The position numbers and the translations under genes are program-made. Source: Waddliaceae bacterium (GTDB lineage Bacteria > Chlamydiota > Chlamydiia > Chlamydiales > SLFE01). From it: a stretch of 64,000 bases of DNA. The stretch is from NCBI GenBank assembly GCA_963783885.1, contig CAWAPJ010000029.1:37593-101592 (forward strand). The letters run 5' to 3'. The number at the start of each line of letters is the position of its first letter. Position 1 is the first letter of the stretch. Positions 560 through 26,998 of this stretch are shown here, piece by piece. The notes beneath the pieces are model-generated. The model made no database searches. It worked only from the letters and a program-made list of their open reading frames with translations, and was not told the origin of the DNA.

Positions 560-1669
560 TCACGCTTTCCAAGTTTTGTGCTCTCGGCCGATGTAGCGGC
601 TTAAAGGGCGTATTAATTTATTGTTTTCCCTCTGCTCAAGCAGGTGGGCCGACCATCCGGCGATCCTGGACATGACAAAAATCGGGGTGAACATCGGAGT
701 CGGGATGCCGCAGAAATGGTAGGCGGCGGCGCTGTAAAAGTCGAGGTTGGGAAACAGCTTTTTCTCTCTCCACATCACCTTTTCGATTCTTTCCGAAACA
801 GGAAATATGTGTTTGTCTCCGGCCATCTCGGAGAGCTTCTTCGCCCACTGTTTGATGATGGGCGAGCGGGGATCTTTAGTTGTGTAGACACGGTGGCCGA
901 AGCCCATGATTTTCGTCTTCTTTTTGAGCATCTCGAGAATCTCTTCCTCTGCGGCGTCTGGGCTGTCGAATGATTCAATGAGTTCCATGGCAGCTTCGTT
1001 GGCACCGCCATGAAGAGGGCCTCTTAGCGCGCCTATGCCGCCGCAAATGCAGGAATAAAAATCGGACAAAGTGCTGGCGATGGTGCGTACAGTAAAAGTT
1101 GAGGCGTTGAACTCATGCTCGGCGTAAAGAATCAGCGAGACATCCAGGCACCGGCGGTGGGTTTCATCGGGCTCTTTCTCCAGAAGGAGTCTTAGAAAAT
1201 GTCCGGCAGTAGAGTCGTCGCCCGTTTCCACATCGATCCTCTTGCCTTCGGTGTGGAATTTGTACCAGTAGAGGAGCATTGACGGAAAGCTGGCAATCAG
1301 GCGGTCAGAGGCGGCAAACTTTGGAGTTTCCTGGTCTTCGGGTTCCAGATTGCCCAGAACTGAACAGCCTGTGCGGAGCACATCCATCATCTGGGTGCCG
1401 CTGGGAATCTCTTCAAGAATTTTTTTCAGAGGGGCGGGGAGATAGCGGAGGCTTTTGAGCTCTTGCCTGTAGCTTTTCAGTTCTGCCTGCGTTGGCAGAC
1501 TGCCGCGAAGAAGCAGCCAGGCCGCTTCCTCGAAGGTGCTATGCTCTGCCAGGTCTTCAATAGCATATCCTCGGTAAAGAAGGCTTTCTTCTTCGGCTCC
1601 GCAGAGGCAGATTGCCGAATCGCCGGCAATGACTCCCGCGAGTCCTCCAGATTTAACTTTTTGACTCAT
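560..1669 (-). CDS. prpC: 2-methylcitrate synthase / citrate synthase family
   Basis: The 369-aa ORF has citrate-synthase motifs (GPLHGGANE, MGFGHRVY, NLDFYS). It sits between prpB and prpD with 4-nt and 3-nt junctions. Confidence 0.85.
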   Translation of the reverse strand: MSQKVKSGGLAGVIAGDSAICLCGAEEESLLYRGYAIEDLAEHSTFEEAAWLLLRGSLPTQAELKSYRQELKSLRYLPAPLKKILEEIPSGTQMMDVLRTGCSVLGNLEPEDQETPKFAASDRLIASFPSMLLYWYKFHTEGKRIDVETGDDSTAGHFLRLLLEKEPDETHRRCLDVSLILYAEHEFNASTFTVRTIASTLSDFYSCICGGIGALRGPLHGGANEAAMELIESFDSPDAAEEEILEMLKKKTKIMGFGHRVYTTKDPRSPIIKQWAKKLSEMAGDKHIFPVSERIEKVMWREKKLFPNLDFYSAAAYHFCGIPTPMFTPIFVMSRIAGWSAHLLEQRENNKLIRPLSRYIGREHKTWKA

Positions 1670-4571: not shown

Positions 4572-5799
4572 AAAAAAAATCTACATCGCCGCTGGGTACA
4601 ATACCATTTATTTCGGTCCGGGACGGCCAGAGTTCGATCCCAAAAAGCCGATGCCGGATCTGGAGTCTTACCTGACCGAAACAGCCGAAGGAACGACCAA
4701 GCAGGTTCCTGAGTTGCAGGTAGAAGAAGGAGTTATCGGCAGCTTTATGTCGGCAAGATTTTTGAAACAGGCCAATATCCCCGGATTTCTTCCCTTCATG
4801 GTTCCTTCCTTGAAAGGGAAACCTTGCACCGGAATCGAAGGAGCCTGCGGTACAGGTGGCCGGACAATCGGCGTGGCTGTCCGTTCTGTCCTGTCGGACA
4901 TGGCAGACGTCGTGTTTGCGGCTGCTTTTGAAATCCAAAATACGATGAAAGCCGTCTATGGTGCCGATGTTCTTGCAGGGGCGGCTTATTTCGGCAAAGA
5001 GAGGAAGCAAGGCGCTGCTTACTACTTTCCCGGAATTTTTGCCGAGCGGGCGGGCGCTTACTTTCGCGAATATGGGGAGAAGTATGCGCGGATGGGATTT
5101 GCCAAGTGGTATGAGCAGGCAATCGAAAAAGCGAGGAAAAATCCCAAAGCGCAGGAGCACTTCAATAAGACCGCCAACCTATTCGATAAAGCGATGACCC
5201 CTCCCGACCCCAAACGTTTTTTGCCCTACCTCAATCAATATGACTGTTCGAAAGTTTCCGACGGCGCGTCGTCGCTTTTGGTGCTCTCCGAAGAGGGACT
5301 GAAGAAATGCGGCCTCAAAAAAAGCGAGGCAGTCGAACTCATTGCCCTTGGCGAGTCGGAGAGCGACATCACAAAACCTCCCCCCGATCCTACTGTTTTC
5401 GACAACACCGAAAACGCGGTGAAAAAAGCTCTGAACGCATCAGGACTTGCTTTGGAAGATATCGGAGTTTTGGAAGTGCATGACTGCTTTTCCATCAGCG
5501 GTATTCTCTCACTGGAGGCGGCAGGATTTGTTCAAAAGGGAAAAGCTCCTGAGTTTGTTATGGAGGAGAGGATCAGTGAATCCGGGACGATTCCCATCAA
5601 TCTTTCGGGCGGACTTACCGGGTTCGGCCATCCGACAGGGGCCAGCGGAGTCCGGCAGATGGTCGATCTTCTCCATCAGCTGACGAAAAAAGCGGAAAAT
5701 CCGGCTCAAAACGAACCTGAAACCGGCATGATGATCAGCATGGGAGGCAATGACAAGACTGTCACTTGCGCAATTGTTAGGACTTGTCTTCATACATGA
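4558..5799 (+). CDS. thiolase-like protein (SCP-x / acetyl-CoA acyltransferase type)
   Basis: The 413-aa ORF has IEGACGTGG near the expected active-site Cys, a VHDCFS motif and a C-terminal GFGHPTGASGVRQ block. It is the third gene of the beta-oxidation operon. Confidence 0.7.
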   Translation: MSSFRKKIYIAAGYNTIYFGPGRPEFDPKKPMPDLESYLTETAEGTTKQVPELQVEEGVIGSFMSARFLKQANIPGFLPFMVPSLKGKPCTGIEGACGTGGRTIGVAVRSVLSDMADVVFAAAFEIQNTMKAVYGADVLAGAAYFGKERKQGAAYYFPGIFAERAGAYFREYGEKYARMGFAKWYEQAIEKARKNPKAQEHFNKTANLFDKAMTPPDPKRFLPYLNQYDCSKVSDGASSLLVLSEEGLKKCGLKKSEAVELIALGESESDITKPPPDPTVFDNTENAVKKALNASGLALEDIGVLEVHDCFSISGILSLEAAGFVQKGKAPEFVMEERISESGTIPINLSGGLTGFGHPTGASGVRQMVDLLHQLTKKAENPAQNEPETGMMISMGGNDKTVTCAIVRTCLHT

Positions 5800-8700
5800 A
5801 TGAAGTGACATACATCAGAGCACAAAAGATGATAGTGCAGAAAAGAGTTTTGGTCAGAATAATGATCAGATTGATCAGCATTTTCATAATAGCCGGTTGA
5901 CTGTGATACCAGTAGATGTTTCTTAATTCAAACGACTTATTGGGCAAATGATTAAGCAGCTGTTTTGAATTGTCCAAAAGCGTTTTATCATAGACCGATT
6001 TAAAACGTTCATCGGGAAATTCAATGAGTTCGTATGACATTGTTTTCATCCAAAGAACCGACCCAAGGATATCCAAAGCGGGAGCCAGCTTTTTTTTGTG
6101 ATTTCTGATATCCCAAATTCCCATAACAAGACTGGAGACGATTTGGCATCTAAGTTCAGCGAGATATTTTTCATCTTCTTTTGCGAGTTCGTCCGGTATG
6201 ATGGCCCATCTGTAGGCAATTTTGCAAAGGTCGGCATTTGAATAATCAGAGCGTTTTATATTGCAGATATCCCGGCAGATAAGATTCAAAAACAGTCTTT
6301 TATTGCGAAGAGATAAGCTCTCGTCAAGAGCAAGCGAAAAAAGCCGGTTCCATCGCTCGGCTTCCTTAATTTGAATTTTCAGAGGCTGGTCTTTGTTTAA
6401 TCTTAAAGAGCTCTGTTTGGTCAATAGATTCCAGGATTCGCTGAGTTTTTCTTTTCGAATCAGAATGTCAAAAATCTTTTTCCATATGGAATTTTTTTCA
6501 GAAATCGACGGAGAATACTTCTTCCATAAGTGCAGAGCCATCATATGGCTTTCTGTTCCCTGTACAAGATCATAAGAGTGGAATCTTCGAATCCAGAGAG
6601 AAACTTCCTTTTCGATGTCGGTTGGAGTGGGTAAGGAAGCTAAAAAGGTATCGATTCTATTTTTAAGGTTAGAGTGAGATTGGCGGCTTATGAGCGTTTC
6701 AATTTCTTTTTTTTGCAGTTGTCTAAGTTCCGGGGAAGCAGGGCTTTCAAGTTTTTCCAGCCATTCAATGACAGATCTCAAAACAGAAAGGTCTTTGTCT
6801 TCGGAATGAAGTCCGATTTGCTTGAGCCGCGGGATGATATCTTCGCCAAGCACTTTTTGACCGGCATTGATTAATCCGAGCGCAGTCTTGACATTAACAT
6901 CAATCGCAAACAACCAAAGGTCAGAGTCAAGGGGATGAATGTTAAGTTTACTCAGCCTCATAAGATTTTGTCCGATTTGATTTGGGGAGAGTTTTTTCAT
7001 GGGAACGCTAAGATCGGGAAGAAGCTGGTCGATAAGCTTCAGATTCAGCGAGGCGGAGTTTTTTTGAGATTTGGTAATCAGTTGATTGAAACAATTTTTG
7101 ATCGTTCCTTTGCTGCTTAAGGGAAGAAAAAGGGCTGCGGCTTCCCAGGCTTTGTTGATGTCATGGGATAATAGGTCAGAAAAAATGATGCTTAGTTCTT
7201 TTGCGGCTTCTTTGCTTTCAGTGCCGACTTTTAGTAAAATATCGGCAGCTATGATTAAATTGTTTGATTCAAGACAGTGCTTTGCGACCATTAGCTGATA
7301 ATCCGCAGACAAATGGTTAGTGAGAATCAAAGGATCAACCTTATCCTTTTCTAAAGGATAAAATAACCGTTTTTTGCCGAGGGATTGGGCTTGAGTTTTC
7401 TTCAAGAGCAGGCTAAGAAGATAGCACTTGACCTCTTCATCGAATTCTTTCGAATCGGCTGCTTCTTTCCATTGCTGATAAGCCTTTTCAACTGAGGTCT
7501 CACAATAGTGGAGAATCAGAATTTGTTGAATCGAGGTGAAAGATAGCCCTCCATTGTCATCTAAAACCTTAAGGAATTTTTTGACGAGTTTTTGAGGGGG
7601 TAGATGATTGAGAAGCAGCCTTTGCTTGTCTTCTGTTTCGAGGAAAATAAGAGAAGAAGTCAGCGATTCAATGGATTCGAACGGGGAGCCATTGATAATT
7701 TTCAAAAAGAGGCTGATAAAATGTAATATGGGTTTATCGTCTGGTGTTAAGGAGTTGAAAACTTCGATTGGAAAGGATATGTCATGTTTTGTCGCCTTTT
7801 TGCCTTTCGACAAGACATACAGAATAAATTTTAAAAGTATTCCGGACAGAAGGGCGAGTCTAGGTTTGATGTCATCGGCGTCATACTCAGGCCGGAAGAT
7901 ATGAATAAATTTCTCGACCGTCGCGGCAGGTTCGTATTTTAACTGGACAACCGCATTTTGACTTTGATCTAAAGAAAGAGCTAAAAAATTTTCACCGTTC
8001 TGACAGCTTGGAAAAACGGGGAGGGCGTCTTTGAGGTTAAAGGCCCTGTTTCCCTCAAGCATCAAAAGAGAGCACATTTTTATTGTTGTGACGAGGTACC
8101 CGCATCCATAGGAATACTTTTTGATATATTCGGTAACTTCGATAAGAAGTTGGTTTTTGAACTTATTGCTAATAAACTTTGGAGATGTCTGCCAATAGTT
8201 AAACTTGTCTCCCTCTTCAAAATAGTCGTCGATCATGCCGATAATGTTGAGGCAAAAAGCCAGCTTTGATTTTGAAGAATGAAGGTGGGCCTGCCTCTCT
8301 GTAAAGCAGGAAACAAATTGTTTGACTGAGGGTTTCTTTGTTAGAAAGATTTTTACTGTCTTTTTAACAATGCCCGCTTGCGGAGTTGCCCAGCCGCAGG
8401 ACTGAAATTGAACGAGTCTTTTTAATGCTCCATGATTGATGGGCTGGTCGATATAAAAGATTTTGGTGAGTCTGTGGAGAAACCATTCAGGAAATGAGGC
8501 CCTCTTTGCAAGTTTTGGGATTGCGTTTTTCGTTTTGATCCAATCTTTTAATGAAATATAGAGGCTGTCGGTTGTCGTCAGATGAGAAGGCTCGGCACCT
8601 TGATACGTAATAATGTCGAGATCATACGGAGTTCCCTCAAAAGTGTAAACATGGGTTAAAACATTGATCTCATAGGGAGTTTTATTAGGAACCCTTTCAT

Positions 8701-9157
8701 TGGCCAAATCGCAGAGGATTTTGTGAAATACTTGAGATTCAGCAGAAGAAATGATAATCCTAAGATCGATATCGGAAAAATGCAAGGCGATATTATCCAC
8801 GCAGTTTTCTAAAAAGAGCTTGCACTTTTCTGGAACAGCCTTTTGAGAGATAATTTTTTTAAACCAGTCTATATCCGCGGGAAGCGAGCTTCCGGCTAGA
8901 TGGATATCGTGCTCGGGATATGTTTCCAGATATTTTGTGACAAAATCAATGATGCGCGCTTCGCCGGTTTCTGAAAGCTTAATGGTTGAATTCAGCAGGC
9001 ATTCAATCTTTCTGTTGTCAAAAGGGAGGGGCGCAAGGTCTTTGAATGAGGAATCAGGATTGCTCCTTCCAGAGGGGAGGAGGCTGTCGGTTGCTAAAAG
9101 TCTTTGCCGCAGCTTAACAAGAGGGAAGTTAACTAGATTATTCGATAAACCGTCCAT
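5777..9157 (-). CDS. large (1126 aa) lineage-specific protein with a C-terminal transmembrane tail; putative secreted effector
   Basis: It is one uninterrupted ORF. The DNA is visibly more AT-rich than its neighbours. The C-terminus MLINLIIILTKTLFCTIIFCALMYVTSF is hydrophobic. Near the N-terminus there is a GS...DxD...DxD pattern (HLAGSS, FSDIDLRII, PYDLDII). I recognise no other family. Confidence 0.6.
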   Translation of the reverse strand: MDGLSNNLVNFPLVKLRQRLLATDSLLPSGRSNPDSSFKDLAPLPFDNRKIECLLNSTIKLSETGEARIIDFVTKYLETYPEHDIHLAGSSLPADIDWFKKIISQKAVPEKCKLFLENCVDNIALHFSDIDLRIIISSAESQVFHKILCDLANERVPNKTPYEINVLTHVYTFEGTPYDLDIITYQGAEPSHLTTTDSLYISLKDWIKTKNAIPKLAKRASFPEWFLHRLTKIFYIDQPINHGALKRLVQFQSCGWATPQAGIVKKTVKIFLTKKPSVKQFVSCFTERQAHLHSSKSKLAFCLNIIGMIDDYFEEGDKFNYWQTSPKFISNKFKNQLLIEVTEYIKKYSYGCGYLVTTIKMCSLLMLEGNRAFNLKDALPVFPSCQNGENFLALSLDQSQNAVVQLKYEPAATVEKFIHIFRPEYDADDIKPRLALLSGILLKFILYVLSKGKKATKHDISFPIEVFNSLTPDDKPILHFISLFLKIINGSPFESIESLTSSLIFLETEDKQRLLLNHLPPQKLVKKFLKVLDDNGGLSFTSIQQILILHYCETSVEKAYQQWKEAADSKEFDEEVKCYLLSLLLKKTQAQSLGKKRLFYPLEKDKVDPLILTNHLSADYQLMVAKHCLESNNLIIAADILLKVGTESKEAAKELSIIFSDLLSHDINKAWEAAALFLPLSSKGTIKNCFNQLITKSQKNSASLNLKLIDQLLPDLSVPMKKLSPNQIGQNLMRLSKLNIHPLDSDLWLFAIDVNVKTALGLINAGQKVLGEDIIPRLKQIGLHSEDKDLSVLRSVIEWLEKLESPASPELRQLQKKEIETLISRQSHSNLKNRIDTFLASLPTPTDIEKEVSLWIRRFHSYDLVQGTESHMMALHLWKKYSPSISEKNSIWKKIFDILIRKEKLSESWNLLTKQSSLRLNKDQPLKIQIKEAERWNRLFSLALDESLSLRNKRLFLNLICRDICNIKRSDYSNADLCKIAYRWAIIPDELAKEDEKYLAELRCQIVSSLVMGIWDIRNHKKKLAPALDILGSVLWMKTMSYELIEFPDERFKSVYDKTLLDNSKQLLNHLPNKSFELRNIYWYHSQPAIMKMLINLIIILTKTLFCTIIFCALMYVTSFMYEDKS

Positions 9158-9193: not shown

Positions 9194-9939
9194 TCAATAA
9201 TGGTTGCGCATTTCGCGCATCTTGGCGAAGACCTCAAGGTCAGAAGAATCCCTCATATTCAATGCGTTGCGGAGATCGGGGTCATCGGCTCTCAAAAAAG
9301 GGTTTGTCAGTTTTTCTTCTGCTAGAGTGCTGGGAATTGTGGGAATATTTTTTTCCCTAAGCGAGCGGGCCTGAGCGAGTCTTTCTTGAATTTTTGGATT
9401 TTTCGGCTCGATTGAGGCGGCGAACTCGAGATTTTTAACGGTATATTCATGACCGCAGAGGATTTTTGTGTCGTCCGGCAGTTTGCAGATTTTCAAAAGG
9501 GAGTGATGCATTTGTTCGGGGGTTCCCTCGAAGAGCCTCCCGCAGCCGCCTCCGAACAGGGTATCGCCGGAAAGAAGCCATTTTTGCTCCGGCTCATAAT
9601 AGATGACGTGGCTGGACGTGTGTCCGGGGACTTCGATTACGGTAAAATTCAGGGGGCCGAAGGAGATGACCTCTCCCTCTTCGGCGGCCTGAGTGAGCTT
9701 GGGAACGCGGCTGTCCTCGGGGCCGATGACCGGGCAGCCTGTGGCATCGACCAGCTTTTCCACTCCGGCTGTGTGGTCCCAATGATGATGGGTGACAAGA
9801 ATCGCTTGAAGTTTCAGGTTTTGTTGTTTTAAGGCGTCAAGAACCGGTTCCGATTCCCGGGATCGACCGCTACGGCCATATTCCCAAAGATCAGCAGATA
9901 TATGTAATTATCGCTTAAAGCCGATAGGATCTTGAGCAT
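9194..9939 (-). pseudogene. gloB: hydroxyacylglutathione hydrolase (glyoxalase II), interrupted by a 1-nt frameshift
   Basis: The N-terminal piece MLKILSALSDNYIYLLIFGNMAVAVDPG (from the ATG at 9939) is in one frame. The rest, ...SEPVLDALKQQNLKLQAILVTHHHWDHTAGVEKLVDATG...GHTSSH...CGHEYT, is in the -1 frame. The switch lies in the GGGAA stretch at about 9850-9862. Adding one nt restores a 248-aa protein. Confidence 0.8.
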
Positions 9940-9988
9940 CTGCGTGTATGTTAGCAAATAACGGCCTTTTGAGAAAAGGCCGTTGTTT

Positions 9989-10171
9989 TTACATAAAGTC
10001 TCTGTCCATGACTGTTTTACGTTTATTTTGCTCTGCGTTGAGAATGGCTTTGTCAATTTCTCTCTCGACAATTCTTGTGAGAGCATCGAACACAGACGAC
10101 GATGTGTTCATTCCCGACTTATCTTTGATATAAGTTTTCACCTTGCTGGCGACGACTTTAGAATCACTCAT
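9989..10171 (-). CDS. 60-aa singlet histone-fold-like protein (bacterial histone / DUF1931-related)
   Basis: The sequence is MSDSKVVASKVKTYIKDKSGMNTSSSVFDALTRIVEREIDKAILNAEQNKRKTVMDRDFM. It shows a helix-loop-long helix-loop-helix pattern ending in RKTV..RDF, as in archaeal histones and the Bdellovibrio-type bacterial histone. This is recalled from memory, not searched. Confidence 0.5.
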   Translation of the reverse strand: MSDSKVVASKVKTYIKDKSGMNTSSSVFDALTRIVEREIDKAILNAEQNKRKTVMDRDFM

Positions 10172-10290
10172 GATCGCACCCTTTTGTTAAGTAGACTTTT
10201 GTCTAATCCTTTCCCTCGATATAATTAAATCTGCAAAAAGGTGCAACAATCAACGGTAAAAATTTACAAAATATTGGTTGTTAGATATAT

Positions 10291-12281
10291 ATGGAGTTTC
10301 CTCTACTTCGCGACATCGTCGTAATCTTCGCCCTTTCCATTGCGGTGCTGCTCGTCTGCCACCGCTTGAGGATATCTTCTGTCGTGGGATTTATCCTGAC
10401 CGGAATTTTAGCAGGCCCCCACGGGTTCGGGCTGATTTCAGCTATCGGGCAGGTGGATATCCTGGCTAAGATCGGGGTGATCCTTCTTCTTTTTACCATC
10501 GGGATGGAATTTTCACCGAGGCGCATTTTGGCAATGCGGAAGGGATTTTTTATCGGCGGCGCCCTGCAGGTAGGCTTCACTATTTTGGGAGGGTTTGCCG
10601 TAGCCAAGCTCGTGGGCAGGCCTGCTTCCGAATCCTTGTTTCTCGGCTTCCTTCTTTCTTTAAGCAGCACAGCTATTGTTTTGAAGCTGCTCAGCGACAG
10701 GGGCGAGGGCAAAACGCCTCATGGCAATCTCATTTTGGCGATCCTAATTTTTCAGGACGTGATCATCGTGATGATGATGCTTATGATCCCGCTGCTGGCG
10801 GGGGAAGGTGCGCTCCCTTTAAGGGATGCTCCCATTGTCTTAGGGAAAGGGGCGCTGATTATTGGCATTAGCTTTTTTTCGCGATTAAGGTTGTTCCTTC
10901 TCTTCTCGACCATGTCGCGAGGACGCGCAGCCGCGAACTCTTTTTGCTTACGGTCCTTGCGATTTGCTTTTCGGTGACCTGGAGTACCTCGCTTGCGGGA
11001 CTGTCAATTTCTCTTGGTGCCTTCTTGTCGGGAATGATTCTTTCCGAATCGGAATATCGCCATCAGGCTTTGGGAAACATTCTTCCCTTTCAAGACATTT
11101 TCACCAGCTTTTTCTTTATTTCCATCGGGATGCTTTTGCAGCTTGAGTTTGTCTATCAGAACCTAGTGTTGATCCTGGCGGTTTGTTTCGGTGTTTTGCT
11201 TCTTAAGGGATTTGTTGCCGGCAACACGTCTTTGATTTTAGGCGCTCCATTAAGGACGTCGATCCTTGTGGGGTTTGCTCTGAGCCAGGTTGGAGAATTC
11301 GCTTTTGTTCTGGCCCAGGCGGGAATGAGAACAGGCATGGGAGAGGTCTGGTTTTATCAACTGTTTTTGTCTGTATCTCTGCTGACAATGCTGGCGACTC
11401 CCTTTTTAATCAAGTCGGCTCCGTTTGCAGCAAACTTTGTCTGCCGTCTCCCCTTGCCGGGGAAGCTGCTCTCCGGAAGGAATATGCGGGAGCTGGAAGA
11501 AGAAAAGGGACTCGCAAATCATGTGGTGATCACCGGATTTGGAACAGTGGGAAAAAACCTTGCCGAGTCCTGCAGAATGGCAAATGTGAATTTCTGTGTT
11601 TTAGAGACCAACCTCGATTTAATTAGGCAGCAAAGAAAAGAGGGAGTGCCGATCTACTTTGGGGATGCCGGTCATGTTTCAGTTTTGCAGCACGTCAACA
11701 TAGACAAAGCTTCGACACTCGCCGTGCTGGTGAACAGTCCCTCGGATGAAAGACGGATCGTTCAAGAGGCAAGAAGGGAAAACAGCGAACTTTATATCGT
11801 GGTTAGGACCCATTATAGCGAAGAGTGCGAGGTTTTGTTTCAATTAGGGGCCGACGAGGTCGTCATCGATGAGTTCGAGTCATCGGTTCAAGTGGTCAAC
11901 CGCATCATGAGCCGCTACGGAGTGTCCTATTCCGAACGGGACCGCATCATCAACAGGCTTCCCGGAGGCCTAGACGATATGCTTCGGGAACCCCGCAACC
12001 CTTTTCTGAAATTTACCCAGCTTGAACTTGATTTGCCTCATGTGCTTTTGGAGGCCTGGGATGTCAGCCCCGGGGCCCCTCTTTGCGACAAGGCAGTACA
12101 GGAGTCGAATCTTAGGCCCGAATACGGAATTTCCATTTTAATCATCATCCGGGGCGGGAAAAATATTACAGACATTTCCGGTAAAACCCGCATTTTGGAA
12201 GGGGATAAGCTTGTCGTCTTTGGAGATAAGGGAAAATTAAGGGAAGCGGAAGTTCTTTTTAAGGCGAAAGCCGCTCAATGA
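10291..12281 (+). pseudogene. Kef-type K+/H+ antiporter (CPA2) with RCK/TrkA-N and TrkA-C domains, split by a 1-nt frameshift
   Basis: ORF 10291..10977 carries the N-terminal TMs. ORF 10944..12281 continues upstream in its own frame as AIKVVPSLLDHVARTRSRELFLLTVLAICF. The frames meet at the T7 run 10873..10879, and a T8 would give one 663-aa protein. The C-terminal part has the Rossmann motif VVITGFGTVGKN. Confidence 0.8.
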
Positions 12282-14258: not shown

Positions 14259-15812
14259 ATGTCGGGTTCGACAGAAGCAGAGTTTTCCGGATGGCGATCG
14301 TTTTTTTGGCCCATCCACAGTCATGAGCTTCGCAAGCTCCTCCCCATGCTGTTGATCTTATTTCTCATCACCTTCAATTACAACGTTCTTAGGACGATGA
14401 AAGACACTCTCGTCGTCGCTACCGGCAAGCATTCCGGTGCCGAAGTCATTCCGTTTATCAAACTCTGGATTATGTTTCCCTGCTCCATTTTGCTTACATA
14501 TCTGTTTACCAAGCTCACCAACAAATTGTCTCGAGAGTTTGTTTTCTATTCCATGATGTCGGTCTTTTTGATCTTCTTTGCTTTTTTTATCTTTGTGCTC
14601 TATCCCTGCAGAGAATTCATTCATCCGCACGAGTTTGCCGACAAGCTCCAAATGTTTCTGCCCGTGGGAATGAAGGGTTTTGTTGCGATGATCCGCAACT
14701 GGTCATTTTCAAGCTTTTATGTCATGTCCGAGCTTTGGGGGAATATTGTCCTCTTTTTACTTTTCTGGGGATTTGCCAATCAGATCACTCATCTTGGCGA
14801 GGCGAAACGCTTCTACGCGATTTTGGGAATCGGAACAAACGTCTCGGGAATCATTGCGGGTCAATTCGCCGTGCAGATATCAAAAACCGAAATGATTTCG
14901 TTTATTCCCTACGGCAGCCGCCCATGGGACCAGCAAATGCTGGTTCTAGTCTCAATCGTTTTGATTTGCGGCATAGCCGCGATGGCCGTTTTCCGATGGA
15001 TGCACACACATGTTCTCGATACTGAAACCGGTGAGGCAATTGAGACGTCGAATGGAGAGGTCAAAGGGCGGATGTCGATGCGAGAAAACTTTTCTTATCT
15101 GTTTAAGTCGCGCTATCTGATGTATATTGCCGTCATCACAATAGCCTATAACATCATTATCAATCTCGTAGAAGTTCTGTGGAAACACCAGGTTCATGAA
15201 CTCTATTCTAATCCAAGCGAGTACAATCTTTACATGAACCAGGTCATGGTGATTATCGGCATTCTGGCAACCATCACATCCTTTTTGGGCACCGGCAACC
15301 TAATACGAAGGTGCGGCTGGACCAAAACAGCTATGCTCACGCCGATTATCCTGCTGCTGACAAGCGTTTTCTTTTTTGGGCTGTTTTTTGCAAAAGAGTA
15401 CTTTCTCGATGGGGCTCAGGTTCTCTTTGGAACAGCGCCCATCGCCCTTGTCGTTTTTTTCGGCACCCTTCAAAATGTTTTGAGCCGGGGTGCCAAGTAC
15501 ACAATTTATGATGCCACGAAAGAAGTGGCTTTTATCCCTCTAAGCTCAGAATCGAAAATTAAAGGCAAAGCCGCAATCGATGGAGTTTGCAATCGACTCG
15601 GCAAATCCGGGGGATCGGCGATTCATCAGGTCTTGCTGATTTCCTTCTCTACACTCTCTTTAAGCGCCCCTTACGTTGCCGGTTTTCTCCTCGCGATCAT
15701 AGGGATTTGGATGGGAGCCGTATCCTCTCTTGGGAAACAATTCAACTTCCTGACCACCGATGAGGTCAAAACCCCTGCCGATTCAGACGCCGAACCTGTC
15801 TTACAAGGATAA
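14259..15812 (+). CDS. ntt: ATP/ADP (nucleotide) translocase, Ntt/Npt family
   Basis: The 517-aa polytopic protein has conserved Ntt blocks (FWPIHSHELRKLLPM, NYNVLRTMKD, KGKAAIDGVCNRLGKSGG). Confidence 0.9.
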   Translation: MSGSTEAEFSGWRSFFWPIHSHELRKLLPMLLILFLITFNYNVLRTMKDTLVVATGKHSGAEVIPFIKLWIMFPCSILLTYLFTKLTNKLSREFVFYSMMSVFLIFFAFFIFVLYPCREFIHPHEFADKLQMFLPVGMKGFVAMIRNWSFSSFYVMSELWGNIVLFLLFWGFANQITHLGEAKRFYAILGIGTNVSGIIAGQFAVQISKTEMISFIPYGSRPWDQQMLVLVSIVLICGIAAMAVFRWMHTHVLDTETGEAIETSNGEVKGRMSMRENFSYLFKSRYLMYIAVITIAYNIIINLVEVLWKHQVHELYSNPSEYNLYMNQVMVIIGILATITSFLGTGNLIRRCGWTKTAMLTPIILLLTSVFFFGLFFAKEYFLDGAQVLFGTAPIALVVFFGTLQNVLSRGAKYTIYDATKEVAFIPLSSESKIKGKAAIDGVCNRLGKSGGSAIHQVLLISFSTLSLSAPYVAGFLLAIIGIWMGAVSSLGKQFNFLTTDEVKTPADSDAEPVLQG

Positions 15813-15918: not shown

Positions 15919-17499
15919 ATGAAAACAACAAAACAAGCGGAGTTTGGGCCTTTCAGGTCAATATTTTGGCCCTTTTACCGGCGTGAGCTAAAATTGGTCA
16001 TTCCCATGATGCTTATGCTCTTTCTTACCTGCTTTAATTATAGCATCCTTCGCAATCTGAAAGACGTTCTTGTGGTTACCGCGAAATCGTCGGGGGGAGC
16101 CGTAATTCCCTTCATCAAGGTCTGGGCTATGCTTCCCATGGCTGTACTTTCCGCCTATATTTTTACTAAGCTCTCCAACCGATACAGCCAGGAAAAAGTA
16201 TACTACATCATGGTTTGGGGATTTCTCATCGCCTATGTGACATTCGGCTTTATCCTCTATCCGATGCGCGAGAGCCTGGAACTTGTCGGGGTTGCCAGGT
16301 TTTTGGAATCGATCCTTCCGACCGGGGCGCATGGCTTCATATCCATGATCAGGCATTGGTCCTTTACAATGTTTTACGTGATGTGCGAGCTTTGGTCCAG
16401 TATTGTTCTAACGGTTCTTTTTTGGGGTTTTGCCAATGAAATCACCAAAGTAAAAGATGCCCGCCGCCATTATAGCATTTTGGGCGTTGTCTCCAGTATT
16501 TCCGCCGTTATCGCCGGCTTATTGGGCCGCTATTTTTCGAGTCTTGAATACAACCCCAGCCTCCCTTTTGGCAGCGACGCCTTTGAACAGACCATTATGG
16601 AAGTTGTTTTGGCTGTCTTTGTTGTCGGCCTTTTCATTATGGGGTCGTTTTGGTGGCTCAATAAATATGCCCTTAATTCACCCGAGTATATTGACCTTCA
16701 CCGATCAAACCGCGCCTTCAGAATGAGGAAGAAGCAATCTTTAAGAGACAGCTTTACCTTCCTTGCCAAATCCAAATATCTCATCTGTATCGCCGTTATC
16801 GTTGTAGCGTATAATTTGTCGATCAACCTTGTCGAGGTTGTCTGGAAAGATCAATTAAAGAATCTTTATCCCAACCGGGATGACTACTTCATTTATTTGA
16901 GCAATGTCACAATTCTTTTGGGAATCATTTCTTCTGCCGCTTCTTTTTTCATCGGGAAAATCATCGGACGGATCGGGTGGACAAAAACCGCCTTGATCAC
17001 TCCCCTGGTCCTTTTGGCGACCAGCCTGGGATTCTTTGGATTCCTATTTTACCGTCAGTTCATGGTGGATACGACGATTTATTTTATGGGAATGACGCCG
17101 CTGGCTTTAGCCGTCATGTTCGGCGGGGCTCAAAACTGCCTTAGCAAGTCGGCCAAATATTCAATTTTCGATTCGACAAAAGAAATGGTCTTTATTCCAC
17201 TGGACCACGAGACCAAGCTCAAAGGGAAAGCCGCCATAGACGGAGTAGGTTCACGCCTGGGCAAGTCCGGAGGTGCAGTCGTCCATCAGGCGCTGCTTCT
17301 GATCTTTTCGTCGCTCACACAAAGCGCCCCTTATGTTGCCACTATCTTGATGGGAGTTATTTTTGTCTGGTTTGGGGCGGTCAAAGTACTCGGCCTGGAA
17401 TTTGCCAAAATGGCTCTTGAGAGAAATGACACTTCTGAAGGGATCACTGACCAGATTAAATCCAAACCTCAGCTTGCAAAGTTAAGTCCTGAAAGCTAA
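15919..17499 (+). CDS. ntt: second nucleotide translocase, Ntt/Npt family (tandem paralog)
   Basis: The 526-aa protein is colinear with the upstream copy (FWPFYRRELKLVIPM, NYSILRNLKD, KGKAAIDGVGSRLGKSGG). Confidence 0.9.
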   Translation: MKTTKQAEFGPFRSIFWPFYRRELKLVIPMMLMLFLTCFNYSILRNLKDVLVVTAKSSGGAVIPFIKVWAMLPMAVLSAYIFTKLSNRYSQEKVYYIMVWGFLIAYVTFGFILYPMRESLELVGVARFLESILPTGAHGFISMIRHWSFTMFYVMCELWSSIVLTVLFWGFANEITKVKDARRHYSILGVVSSISAVIAGLLGRYFSSLEYNPSLPFGSDAFEQTIMEVVLAVFVVGLFIMGSFWWLNKYALNSPEYIDLHRSNRAFRMRKKQSLRDSFTFLAKSKYLICIAVIVVAYNLSINLVEVVWKDQLKNLYPNRDDYFIYLSNVTILLGIISSAASFFIGKIIGRIGWTKTALITPLVLLATSLGFFGFLFYRQFMVDTTIYFMGMTPLALAVMFGGAQNCLSKSAKYSIFDSTKEMVFIPLDHETKLKGKAAIDGVGSRLGKSGGAVVHQALLLIFSSLTQSAPYVATILMGVIFVWFGAVKVLGLEFAKMALERNDTSEGITDQIKSKPQLAKLSPES

Positions 17500-24878: not shown

Positions 24879-25400
24879 ATGATAACAATCCCCAATATTT
24901 TGTCTCTGCTGAGGATTCCCTTGGCTCTGGTCTTCTTTCAACAGAATGTTGTTTTGCGGGCTGTTGTCGTTCTTCTTGCGCTCTGCAGTGATGGGCTCGA
25001 TGGTTATATTGCAAGGCATTATAGGCAGACATCCCGTTTGGGGACGGTTCTCGATCCTTTAACCGATCGTTTTTTCGTGATTGTGGCCGTTTCCGTCTTT
25101 TATACTGAAAACCGGATTCAGGCATGGCAGGTCGCGGCGATGTTTTGCCGGGATTTTTCCATTTTGCTATTCGGGTTTTATTTGTTTCTTAAAGGGTCGC
25201 TCGCAGAGTATTATTTGCGCGCCATCTGGTGCGGTAAAGTGACAACGGTCGTTCAGCTTGCCGTCCTCCTTAGCTTGGTACTGAACCTTTTTGTCCCCAA
25301 TATCGTTTATTATATCCTGATCGCCCTTGGCGCTTTGGCGCTTATCGAACTGGCAATATCCAGCCCTCGCATCAAAGAGGAGGCTTCCCGGTTAAGGTAA
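24879..25400 (+). CDS. pgsA: CDP-alcohol phosphatidyltransferase (phosphatidylglycerophosphate synthase-like)
   Basis: It carries the CDP-OH transferase motif DGLDGYIARHYRQTSRLGTVLDPLTDR within a multi-TM 173-aa protein. Confidence 0.75.
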   Translation: MITIPNILSLLRIPLALVFFQQNVVLRAVVVLLALCSDGLDGYIARHYRQTSRLGTVLDPLTDRFFVIVAVSVFYTENRIQAWQVAAMFCRDFSILLFGFYLFLKGSLAEYYLRAIWCGKVTTVVQLAVLLSLVLNLFVPNIVYYILIALGALALIELAISSPRIKEEASRLR

Positions 25401-25806
25401 AGGGGGTCATCAGGAGGTTGTCTTGGTTCTGCTCAATTTGAAAATTTTCAGGCGTTGTGATCATATTGGGCTTTGTCACATTTTCGCTCAGGTTCGAAAT
25501 TGCCCATAAAGCGGCGATTTTACTGCATTCGTTCCAGTGCTTGACCCACTCATAGGGCTTGCTGCTGATACATGACACCGCATACCCTACAGGAAACATC
25601 AGGCAGCTTGTTGCATATTCGCCAAAGCCCACTCCCGCTAAAAGCGTGAAAGCTCCTTCGCACTTGACGACAGTCCAAACTGGAGGGAATTTTTTATATT
25701 TGTCTCTTTGAGTAATCCAGTTCTCCTCCTGGCCTTGGGGATTTCTCCATATGATTAATTTAGTTTGCAACCAGGCAGATAAGGAATCTGAAAAGTAATG
25801 AATCAT
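25372..25806 (-). CDS. hypothetical protein
   Basis: The ORF track gives 25372..25920. I prefer the internal Met (MIHYFSDSL...) at 25806 because the upstream part overlaps the rsmB 3' end. No family is recognised. Confidence 0.35.
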   Translation of the reverse strand: MIHYFSDSLSAWLQTKLIIWRNPQGQEENWITQRDKYKKFPPVWTVVKCEGAFTLLAGVGFGEYATSCLMFPVGYAVSCISSKPYEWVKHWNECSKIAALWAISNLSENVTKPNMITTPENFQIEQNQDNLLMTPFTLTGKPPL

Positions 25807-25816
25807 AAATGTCTCC

Positions 25817-26998
25817 TTATTTGGATAGAACGCAGGCAAAGCCCCCATCCCAACCATCTTTGTTCGGTAATATGACCTTATGACACAAGCAATTTCCCCA
25901 CAATCTTTCTTCTTTGACAAGGTTTTGATTCTCGCAGGGCAGGATGCTGCACGTCATATAGAAAACTCTGCCATGGGGTGTTAATAAATCGAGGGCATGC
26001 CTTAAGAGCTTTTTTTGAAGCGAGCGGAGTTCTTCGACGGCACAAGAGTTGAGCCTCCAACGGGCTTCAGGCCGTTTGTTGAGCACTCCCGAATTGGTGC
26101 AGGGAGCATCGACAATGATAAGATCATAACGATCATCAGTTGAAAACGTTTCTCCACGGCTGATTGAATAGTCGGCATTGATGCCGTATTTTTCAAAATT
26201 TTCCCGTATTTTATTCATCTTGCCTTCCGAAACATCATTGACAGTGAGTTTTGCCTGGGGATAAAGATCATGGGCAAGCAGGGCCTTTCCCCCGGGAGAG
26301 GCTGCGAGGTCTAAAATGGTCTTGGGAGGTTTTGTCAAAAAATTAGCCATTTTCCCCATGAGAAGAACTGGGGTGATGTTCTGAATATAAATATCCGGAG
26401 ATTCGGAATAGTCTTGAGGGTTTTCGATGGGGAAAACTTTTAAAGGAGAATCGCTGCCCCGCCTTAGGCGGCCCATCGTTTTGCCGGGGGTATTGCCCGC
26501 TTCCAAGGTCGCAATTGTCGTTTGAAGGCCGTATTCTACGAGAAGCTGCTGAACATAAAATTTGGTATAGGAATAACGGATGCTGAGGCTTTCGGCATCA
26601 CTTCCCTGAGGCAGTCTGAACTCTGTATGGGGGATCTTCTTCAGCACGGCGTTTAAAAAGGAGGCAAACCGGACATGGCACTCTTTTTTTGCCAGCTCGA
26701 CGCTCTCGTTGACAATGGCGTGCAGAGGAACTTTGTCCATTTCAAGCGCTTGATAGAGAGCAATATAAAGTAAAGCCCTCTCTTTGCGTTTCAACTTCAG
26801 GGTGTCTGAGAGTTGTTTGGCGTAGTGGTCGAGAGTTTTTTGTTTTCTCATAGCGCCGTTGGCGATTTCTTTTGCGAAACGAAGATCTTTCGAGGAAGGG
26901 GCGTCGGATTGTTGCCAGGTCTCAAGAAATGAGGAGATAAACTGCTTTTCCCTCATAGATCCGAGAAGAGCTTTGTAGGCCGCTTCTCTTGCATTCAT
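25817..26998 (-). CDS. rsmB: 16S rRNA (cytosine-C5) methyltransferase, RsmB/Sun type
   Basis: It has a NusB-like N-terminus, a SAM-binding block (ILDLAASPGGKA), and DAPCTNSGV and TCS motifs. Confidence 0.8.
   Translation of the reverse strand: MNAREAAYKALLGSMREKQFISSFLETWQQSDAPSSKDLRFAKEIANGAMRKQKTLDHYAKQLSDTLKLKRKERALLYIALYQALEMDKVPLHAIVNESVELAKKECHVRFASFLNAVLKKIPHTEFRLPQGSDAESLSIRYSYTKFYVQQLLVEYGLQTTIATLEAGNTPGKTMGRLRRGSDSPLKVFPIENPQDYSESPDIYIQNITPVLLMGKMANFLTKPPKTILDLAASPGGKALLAHDLYPQAKLTVNDVSEGKMNKIRENFEKYGINADYSISRGETFSTDDRYDLIIVDAPCTNSGVLNKRPEARWRLNSCAVEELRSLQKKLLRHALDLLTPHGRVFYMTCSILPCENQNLVKEERLWGNCLCHKVILPNKDGWDGGFACVLSK

Follow-up and report, generated by a model that had tools for sequence, protein, structure and literature searches.

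A 60-aa open reading frame (ORF) in the 64-kb window (the whole stretch of DNA analyzed here) probably encodes a nucleoid-associated histone of the HBb/Bd0055-type "bacterial dimer" branch in an uncultured chlamydia-like bacterium. Its sequence, profile matches, predicted structure, and conserved residues supported a genuine singlet histone-fold gene of the HBb type. A histone-fold protein in chlamydiae is already in print, and the window protein adds a member to a known family.

The ORF and its translation agreed exactly with those quoted in an earlier sequence-only reading, which had proposed a bacterial histone (Table 1). The product has a mass of 6.8 kDa and a pI of 9.45, with 12 lysine and arginine and 9 aspartate and glutamate residues (net charge, +3). 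The RKTV-x-x-RDF element named in that reading is present as RKTV-MD-RDF (R51 K52 T53 V54 ... R57 D58 F59). A tblastn search of the 64-kb window for a second histone copy returned none, leaving this ORF as the sole copy.

Table 1. Features of the histone gene and its immediate surroundings in the window
Feature	Position	Strand	Basis and remarks
Singlet histone-fold coding sequence, 60 aa	9989..10171	minus	ATG start, TAA stop; ORF call and translation
Shine-Dalgarno-like AAGGGTG	10177..10183	minus	5 nt upstream of ATG; read from sequence; putative function
Conserved upstream block	10196..10248	minus	Comparative alignment; putative promoter function
Terminator-like hairpin, 11-bp stem, 3-nt loop	9960..9984	minus	5 nt past stop; then AUUUGCU
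gloB (hydroxyacylglutathione hydrolase)	9194-9939	minus	Frameshifted at G-run 9856-9858; functionally outside the histone unit
kef-type K+/H+ antiporter (Na_H_Exchanger + TrkA_N + TrkA_C)	10291-12281	plus	Frameshifted at T-run 10873-10879; functionally outside the histone unit

Histone fold and subfamily of the window protein

In single-sequence searches against PDB sequences, the window protein matched HBb (Bd0055; 8fvx/8cmp) with an E value of 6e-9 over residues 2-59 without gaps (phmmer), followed by Leptospira HLp (9qt0; E=1.9e-7) and archaeal HTkC (9f2c; E=1.8e-3). A family profile of 52 relatives reached HBb at 1.3e-23, HLp at 3e-10, HTkC at 4e-9, and HmvA at 1.9e-5. The match to archaeal histones claimed in the sequence-only reading held for the profile, which reached HTkC and HmvA, but fell below the archaeal and CBF thresholds of Pfam and NCBIfam. 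Pfam gave no match for the single window sequence even at E<=10; the window protein did not reach the gathering threshold of PF00808 (CBFD_NFYB_HMF), with weak matches in 40 of the 52 relatives (best E=2.8e-4), and it scored 19 bits (E=0.0014) with the NCBIfam model archaea_histone (NF043032), for which the curated cut-off is 50 bits. As the curated libraries were uninformative, family membership was shown via PDB sequences, profiles, and structure. An NCBIfam match to Fis (E=0.13) was at chance level and was set aside.

The AlphaFold2 model placed helices at residues 4-19, 25-48, and 56-59, with loops L1 and L2 between them and an α3 of four residues; as a single-chain model with a pLDDT of 79 and a pTM of 0.55, it is of moderate confidence. 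Foldseek comparison of this model with the PDB, which had been suggested as a check, yielded histones for all 50 matches shown, with five HBb entries at ranks 1 to 5 (TM-score, 0.75-0.77; rmsd, 1.5-2.7 Å), HLp and HTkC thereafter (TM-score, ~0.70), and then eukaryotic H2B chains. A profile comparison in hhalign revealed a 4-residue gap in α2 relative to the presumed sequence of HMfB. The α2 of the window protein is predicted to be approximately one turn shorter than that of archaeal histones and its α3 to form a single turn. These dimensions agree with those of α3-truncated histones, whose α3 spans 3-4 residues and whose α2 falls short of that of nucleosomal histones by 4-5 residues (Schwab 2024, PMC11390915), a shortened α2 being a published hallmark of bacterial singlets. 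PDB sequence, profile, and Foldseek matches were all significant, in keeping with the HBb-type singlet fold put forward from the letters of the sequence.

The alignment with HBb (8fvx, 8cmp, 9ezz, 9f0e), likewise proposed as a check, ran ungapped over residues 1-59 with 25/53 identities in the best local alignment, and the two proteins belong to one length class (60 versus 64 aa). They have in common a short α2, a one-turn α3, the RKTVM-x-RD loop L2, the RD clamp, and the absence of the archaeal tetramerization residues. The RxTxxxxD motif of this clamp (R51-K52-T53 ... D58) was invariant in the 52 relatives and is present in HBb. The window protein differs in carrying A8, N49, E38, and F59 where HBb has T8, D49, L38, and I59; the R51-D58 clamp is retained, and D49 of HBb provides an extra salt bridge to R51. 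Three of these differences count against the HBb-type reading, namely A8 for T8, N49 for D49, and E38 for the interface residue L38. Residues 61-64 of HBb are missing in the window protein, and no conclusion depends on the HBb tail. The two proteins also come from different phyla.

The bacterial dimer category was defined by sequence clustering with Bd0055/HBb (Schwab 2024), and the full-length match of the window protein to HBb, together with the profile values for HBb versus HLp, placed it in this category. Bacterial dimer histones carry S-K at the N-terminus of α1 and the α1 lysines K11/K13/K17 in the numbering of Schwab; the corresponding S9, K10, K12, and K16 of the window protein are fully or almost fully conserved in the family. 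Contacts of HBb with the DNA backbone involve N22, R57, S9, T53, T8, S24, K10, K12, K52, and K16 (Hu 2024, PMC11317129), and the window protein has kept 9 of these 10 residues, with A8 in place of T8. The residues S9, K10, K12, L31, R51, K52, T53, M55, R57, and D58 were invariant in the 52 relatives, and K16, N22, T23, and S24 were nearly so. The window protein can be assigned on these features to the α3-truncated histones of the "bacterial dimer" class, HBb type, and its dimeric state would be expected by analogy.

It is very unlikely that the window protein is a face-to-face (FtF) α3 histone like HLp (Leptospira perolatii, 9qt0) and HTkC (Thermococcus kodakarensis, 9f2c), that is, a preassembled tetramer wrapping DNA and no bending or coating dimer, although both proteins are significant sequence matches and share with it the α3-truncated fold, A-S-K at the N-terminus of α1, and the RD clamp. 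FtF tetramers of HLp form via R49, S52, and N53, with R49, N53, and R55 conserved (Hu 2025, PMC12701072), and R48 and N52 are the FtF dimer-dimer residues in the logo of Schwab 2024. At HLp positions 49, 52, and 53, the window protein carries N45, Q48, and N49, so that the defining arginine of the conserved tetramerization set is missing, and R51, at the position of HLp R55, is the universal clamp residue. N49 coincides with HLp N53, and F59 with HLp F63, as the FtF reading would predict; however, 37 of the 52 relatives have D or E at position 49, so that N49 does not characterize the family, the position of the FtF arginine is mostly N in the family, and HLp T61 is replaced by R57. The L2 motif of HLp also differs (KRTTVRPTDF versus RKTVMDRDF), the profile matched HBb 13 orders of magnitude better than HLp, and the alignment of Hu 2025 places the proteins of Waddlia and Simkania next to HBb, outside the FtF group. 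At S45, A48, and I61, the positions mutated in HBb to make a tetramer (Hocher et al.), the HBb-type window protein carries N45 and Q48, and position 61 is absent as the chain ends at 60.

The likeness to DUF1931 proteins suggested in the sequence-only reading did not hold. DUF1931 (PF09123) proteins are distant histone-fold relatives; however, they are pseudodimeric doublets and cluster apart (PMC12701072). DUF1931 membership was rejected given the singlet architecture of the 60-aa protein and the lack of a Pfam match to this family, with weak matches in only 2 of the 52 relatives. The "DUF1931" label found in the PDB is the depositor's name for HLp.

Transcription unit, neighboring genes, and conservation

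The histone ORF lies in a 350-bp gap with gloB downstream and a divergent kef gene upstream. The earlier description of a gene standing alone with its own upstream region was borne out by a conserved promoter-like block, a Shine-Dalgarno-like site, and a terminator hairpin, and these features point to a transcription unit of its own, with the promoter function of the block being putative. For comparison, a related 2.29-Mb contig with approximately 88% DNA identity (L001) served as the reference. The sequence AAAAGGGTGCGATC-ATG is identical in L001 and in locus L003, and in most other family loci the Shine-Dalgarno position is occupied by GGAG or AGGAG. The upstream block can be parsed as TTGCAC (10246-10241) and TATATC (10223-10218) separated by a 17-nt spacer, with CGAGGGAAAGGATTAGAC after them; the shared letters are TTGCACCTTT...AATTATATCG..G.AAAGG. 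Its columns are invariant in the window, L001, L003, L004, and L005 despite near-saturated synonymous sites in the gene, and the block occurs once in the window. As the block is kept in L003 even though kef is absent there, it belongs to the histone gene. Among the chlamydial singlet genes compared, the promoter-like block was found only in the window and these four loci, and not at the histone genes of chlamydial loci outside the syntenic clade.

The block was found by comparative alignment only; a scan with the strict sigma-70 consensus detected no minus-strand promoter at the thresholds used. A chlamydial sigma-28-type late promoter was considered for the block and rejected by eye, as the -35 half did not fit the presumed consensus. 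A hairpin in the 5'UTR (TAGAC-AAAA-GTCTA) was also dismissed as a structured element since its conservation does not extend to L004 or L005. The terminator-like hairpin past the stop codon was considerably more stable than expected (-15.6 kcal/mol; z=-5.2; 0/200 shuffles as stable in RNA folding), with a weak U-tract after it, and hairpins of differing sequence occupy the same position in L001, L003, L004, L005, and Waddlia chondrophila. The chlamydial singlet genes and the window gene all appear to be monocistronic and small, each with its own terminator.

The sequence-only reading had described both flanking genes as broken. Both are indeed frameshifted in the window, each by one 1-nt deletion relative to L001, in which the orthologues are intact (GloB, 248 aa; Kef, 659 aa); the break in gloB, however, probably stems from a homopolymer error in sequencing or assembly and does not mark a pseudogene. 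L083 (ERR11523667), an independent assembly of the same organism, matches the window at every site of 9836-11171 but one, the G-run of gloB, where the window has GGG, L001 has GGAG, and L083 has GGGG with an intact frame, which argues for such an error. The split of kef into ORFs of 228 and 445 aa by a T7 tract (T8 in L001) was reproduced in L083, where the same 228-aa fragment was called, and may reflect a true pseudogene, a tract prone to slippage, or a platform error common to both assemblies.

Further observations concern the window at large. Citrate synthase is a single 369-aa ORF in the window (560-1669) and is split in L001 (10852-11963; 264 + 88 aa), indicating that single-base frameshifts occur in both assemblies. 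An RsmB-like methyltransferase ORF (NusB + RsmB-F; 25372-25920 / 25817-26998, minus strand) covers only profile positions 9-152 of 199 and overlaps a following 182-aa ORF that lacks a Pfam match; this region may contain another frameshift. Overlapping same-strand ORFs had raised the possibility of many frameshifted genes in the window, which was discarded as Pfam showed mostly distinct genes with over-extended ORFs. A 1126-aa ORF adjoining gloB (5777-9157, minus strand) had no Pfam match; both of its ends align to a 141-aa ORF of L001, and approximately 2.98 kb of this region is present in the window and absent in L001, a large lineage-specific insertion or deletion within a hypothetical protein. 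The tandem ORFs at 14259-15812 (517 aa) and 15919-17499 (526 aa), both on the plus strand, correspond by synteny to the two TLC ATP/ADP translocases of L001. Such translocases are a hallmark of chlamydial energy parasitism, and the pair supports a chlamydia-like origin of the window. A crude screen of the window for a lysine-rich Hc1-like ORF returned none.

The kef-histone-gloB order, beside pnpox, pgk, and the two TLC translocase genes, was found in L001, L002, L004, and L005 and in part in L003, and this synteny is confined to one chlamydial clade. Across the clade, the histone shares 87-92% identity with the L001 copy, as against 50-75% for PGK, PNPOx, Kef, and GloB. The family as a whole extends much further, with numbers well above chance expectation: there were 330 word-indexed homologues, the relatives formed 1197 clusters at 50% identity (E<=1e-3, with doublets and N-terminally extended forms included), and at least 551 loci were confirmed among GTDB species genomes. 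By title count, 30 of the best 80 loci bear chlamydial names (Waddliaceae, Simkaniaceae, Parachlamydiales, or Chlamydiia), and the remainder of these 80 belong mainly to Oligoflexales, Bdellovibrionota, Myxococcota, and unclassified metagenome-assembled genomes (MAGs).

The histone gene is under strong purifying selection, with dN/dS values of 0.03-0.06 wherever dS could be estimated and a pS of 0.72-0.94, which is near saturation. A chance ORF or annotation artefact in the gap between two damaged genes would fit the short length (60 aa), the lack of a Pfam match, the frameshifted neighbors, and the other-frame ORFs of 61-85 aa that overlap the histone ORF. This explanation is already refuted by the conservation pattern and retains next to no probability, given such low dN/dS values at near-saturated synonymous change, hundreds of homologues, some with solved structures, and the conserved promoter-like block and terminator.

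Two further observations concern the architecture and copy number of family members. The top-scoring representatives of the family profile (P0121-P0138 and others) were either natural doublets with two histone folds (126-150 aa) or forms extended N-terminally by 50-150 aa, indicating that the HBb-type fold exists also in tandem and fused forms. In the Waddliaceae MAG MFD05684.bin.3.421, the histone gene is found on two contigs (L019 and L022) with identical upstream sequence, reflecting a recent duplication or, alternatively, a duplicate produced by the assembly.

Proposed function and comparison with other histones

By analogy with HBb, two chains of the window protein would pair head-to-tail via α2 into a homodimer, which would most likely bind DNA without sequence specificity and bend or coat it. 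The kept residues S9, K10, K12, K16, N22, S24, K52, T53, and R57, which contact backbone phosphates in HBb-DNA crystal structures and simulations, would serve this binding, and the R51-D58 clamp would shape loop L2. At cellular abundance, the chromosome might be compacted or shielded. The mode of binding in vivo is itself disputed for HBb, for which both bending by individual dimers (Hu 2024, PMC11317129) and an end-on filament coating straight DNA at high density (Hocher 2023, PMC10627809) have been described. Wrapping of DNA into (hyper)nucleosomes is unlikely for the window protein since the four-helix-bundle residues and a long α3 are absent. In this respect it differs from HMfB, HTkA, and HmvA, with which it shares the histone fold, the RxTxxxxD motif, and the profile match to HmvA; its α2 is 4 residues shorter, its α3 comprises 4 residues versus approximately 10, and the interface that forms the four-helix bundle is absent.

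A role other than packaging, as a protein-protein scaffold or a locus-specific regulator comparable to the eukaryotic TAF/NF-Y histone folds, seems unlikely to us, even though both Hocher 2023 and Schwab 2024 cautioned that some prokaryotic histone folds may be non-chromatin proteins and the net charge of the window protein is merely +3. The residues conserved in the family are exactly those that contact the DNA backbone in HBb, and the protein has neither an extra domain nor a conserved partner gene, with synteny restricted to a single chlamydial clade. Moreover, the Waddlia orthologue has been reported as highly expressed (PMC10627809), and it tentatively reaches the raw-read value in elementary-body (EB) samples that is given below. 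Conservation and expression, on both of which the sequence-only reading had made its proposal depend, were thus found, as low dN/dS values here and as high expression reported for Waddlia orthologues, and a nucleoid-associated role remains the preferred reading.

The chlamydial singlets are among the closest described proteins. The window protein shares 43/59 identical residues with the Waddliaceae MAG protein MBB64678.1, 37/59 with W. chondrophila ADI38622.1/D6YWW1, and 34/59 with Simkania negevensis CCB88880.1/F8L7X8, and all of them have a common VVxSKVK...GMNTS...RKTVMDRDF signature. The gene neighborhoods differ, with ACAD and OMP genes in Waddlia versus kef and gloB in the window clade. 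These singlets are already documented: Suppl. Table 1 of Hocher 2023 (PMC10627809) lists ADI38622.1, CCB88880.1, CCB88888.1, the Waddliaceae MAG protein, and others, and Fig. S12 of that study is a chlamydial cladogram. Chlamydiota were named among the phyla with bacterial dimer histones (Schwab 2024, PMC11390915; Hu 2024, PMC11317129), and Fig. 1b of Hu 2025 shows the proteins of Waddlia and Simkania in one alignment with HBb (PMC12701072). The novelty in chlamydiae implied by the sequence-only reading was overstated, as members are listed in all four studies. No experimental study of a chlamydial member was found in the literature searched.

A possible role of histone-fold proteins in chlamydial development

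Chlamydiae are a textbook case of developmentally controlled nucleoid condensation, which is carried out by Hc1/Hc2. In chlamydiae, the histone-fold protein would act alongside these unrelated H1-like proteins (HctA/HctB). Both kinds are small basic chlamydial nucleoid proteins, and W. chondrophila carries hctA as well as the histone-fold gene; Hc1/Hc2, however, are lysine/alanine-rich and H1-like, non-homologous to the window protein, and without a histone fold. EB-biased transcript levels may tentatively be added to what the two have in common, according to the following lead.

Fig. 6a of Hocher 2023, citing Waddlia RNA-seq, presents the Waddlia histone-fold gene as highly expressed (PMC10627809). 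The W. chondrophila orthologue (P0273) lies at CP001928.1:1346999-1347187 (189 nt), in the gene order NQO-like, 142, 501, 625, (48), histone 62, ACAD, OMP, OMP, ECH. This order matches WCW_RS06115 to RS06155 in Table S4 of Beder & Saluz and identifies the histone gene as WCW_RS06135, a tentative mapping given that five ORFs correspond to four locus tags and the 48-aa ORF was assumed to be unannotated. By accession or name, the Beder & Saluz supplements yielded only Hc1. The raw counts of WCW_RS06135 were 108/224/124 in RBs and 2168/2551/1784 in EBs (Beder & Saluz), with a log2FC of -2.06 (padj 3e-36), that is, approximately 4-fold higher in EBs than in RBs, and hctA (Hc1) showed a log2FC of -2.01. 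In EBs, WCW_RS06135 reached approximately 11,000 raw reads/kb, and the adjacent ACAD gene approximately 5,400/kb. If the gene-order mapping holds, these data tentatively suggest an abundant chlamydial histone transcript with an EB bias like that of Hc1.

A more specific possibility, which we regard as speculative and rather doubtful, is that the histone-fold protein is a late-cycle, developmentally regulated partner of Hc1/Hc2 that helps to condense or sheathe the chromosome of the infectious EB. Such a role would have a counterpart in the compact attack-phase nucleoid of Bdellovibrio and, if true, would mean that two unrelated "histone" systems cooperate in one bacterial developmental switch.

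Bacterial histones were established as chromatin proteins only in 2023-2025, in Bdellovibrio and Leptospira. The locus described here contributes a clearly delimited family member from a chlamydial clade that is uncultured, with extreme sequence constraint, its own conserved promoter-like element, and a conserved kef-histone-gloB neighborhood. It leaves existing knowledge unchanged, and a specialist would expect such a gene in an environmental chlamydia. Collectively, our findings support the use of the cultivable Waddlia and Simkania for asking how a histone-fold protein and Hc1 share genome packaging.
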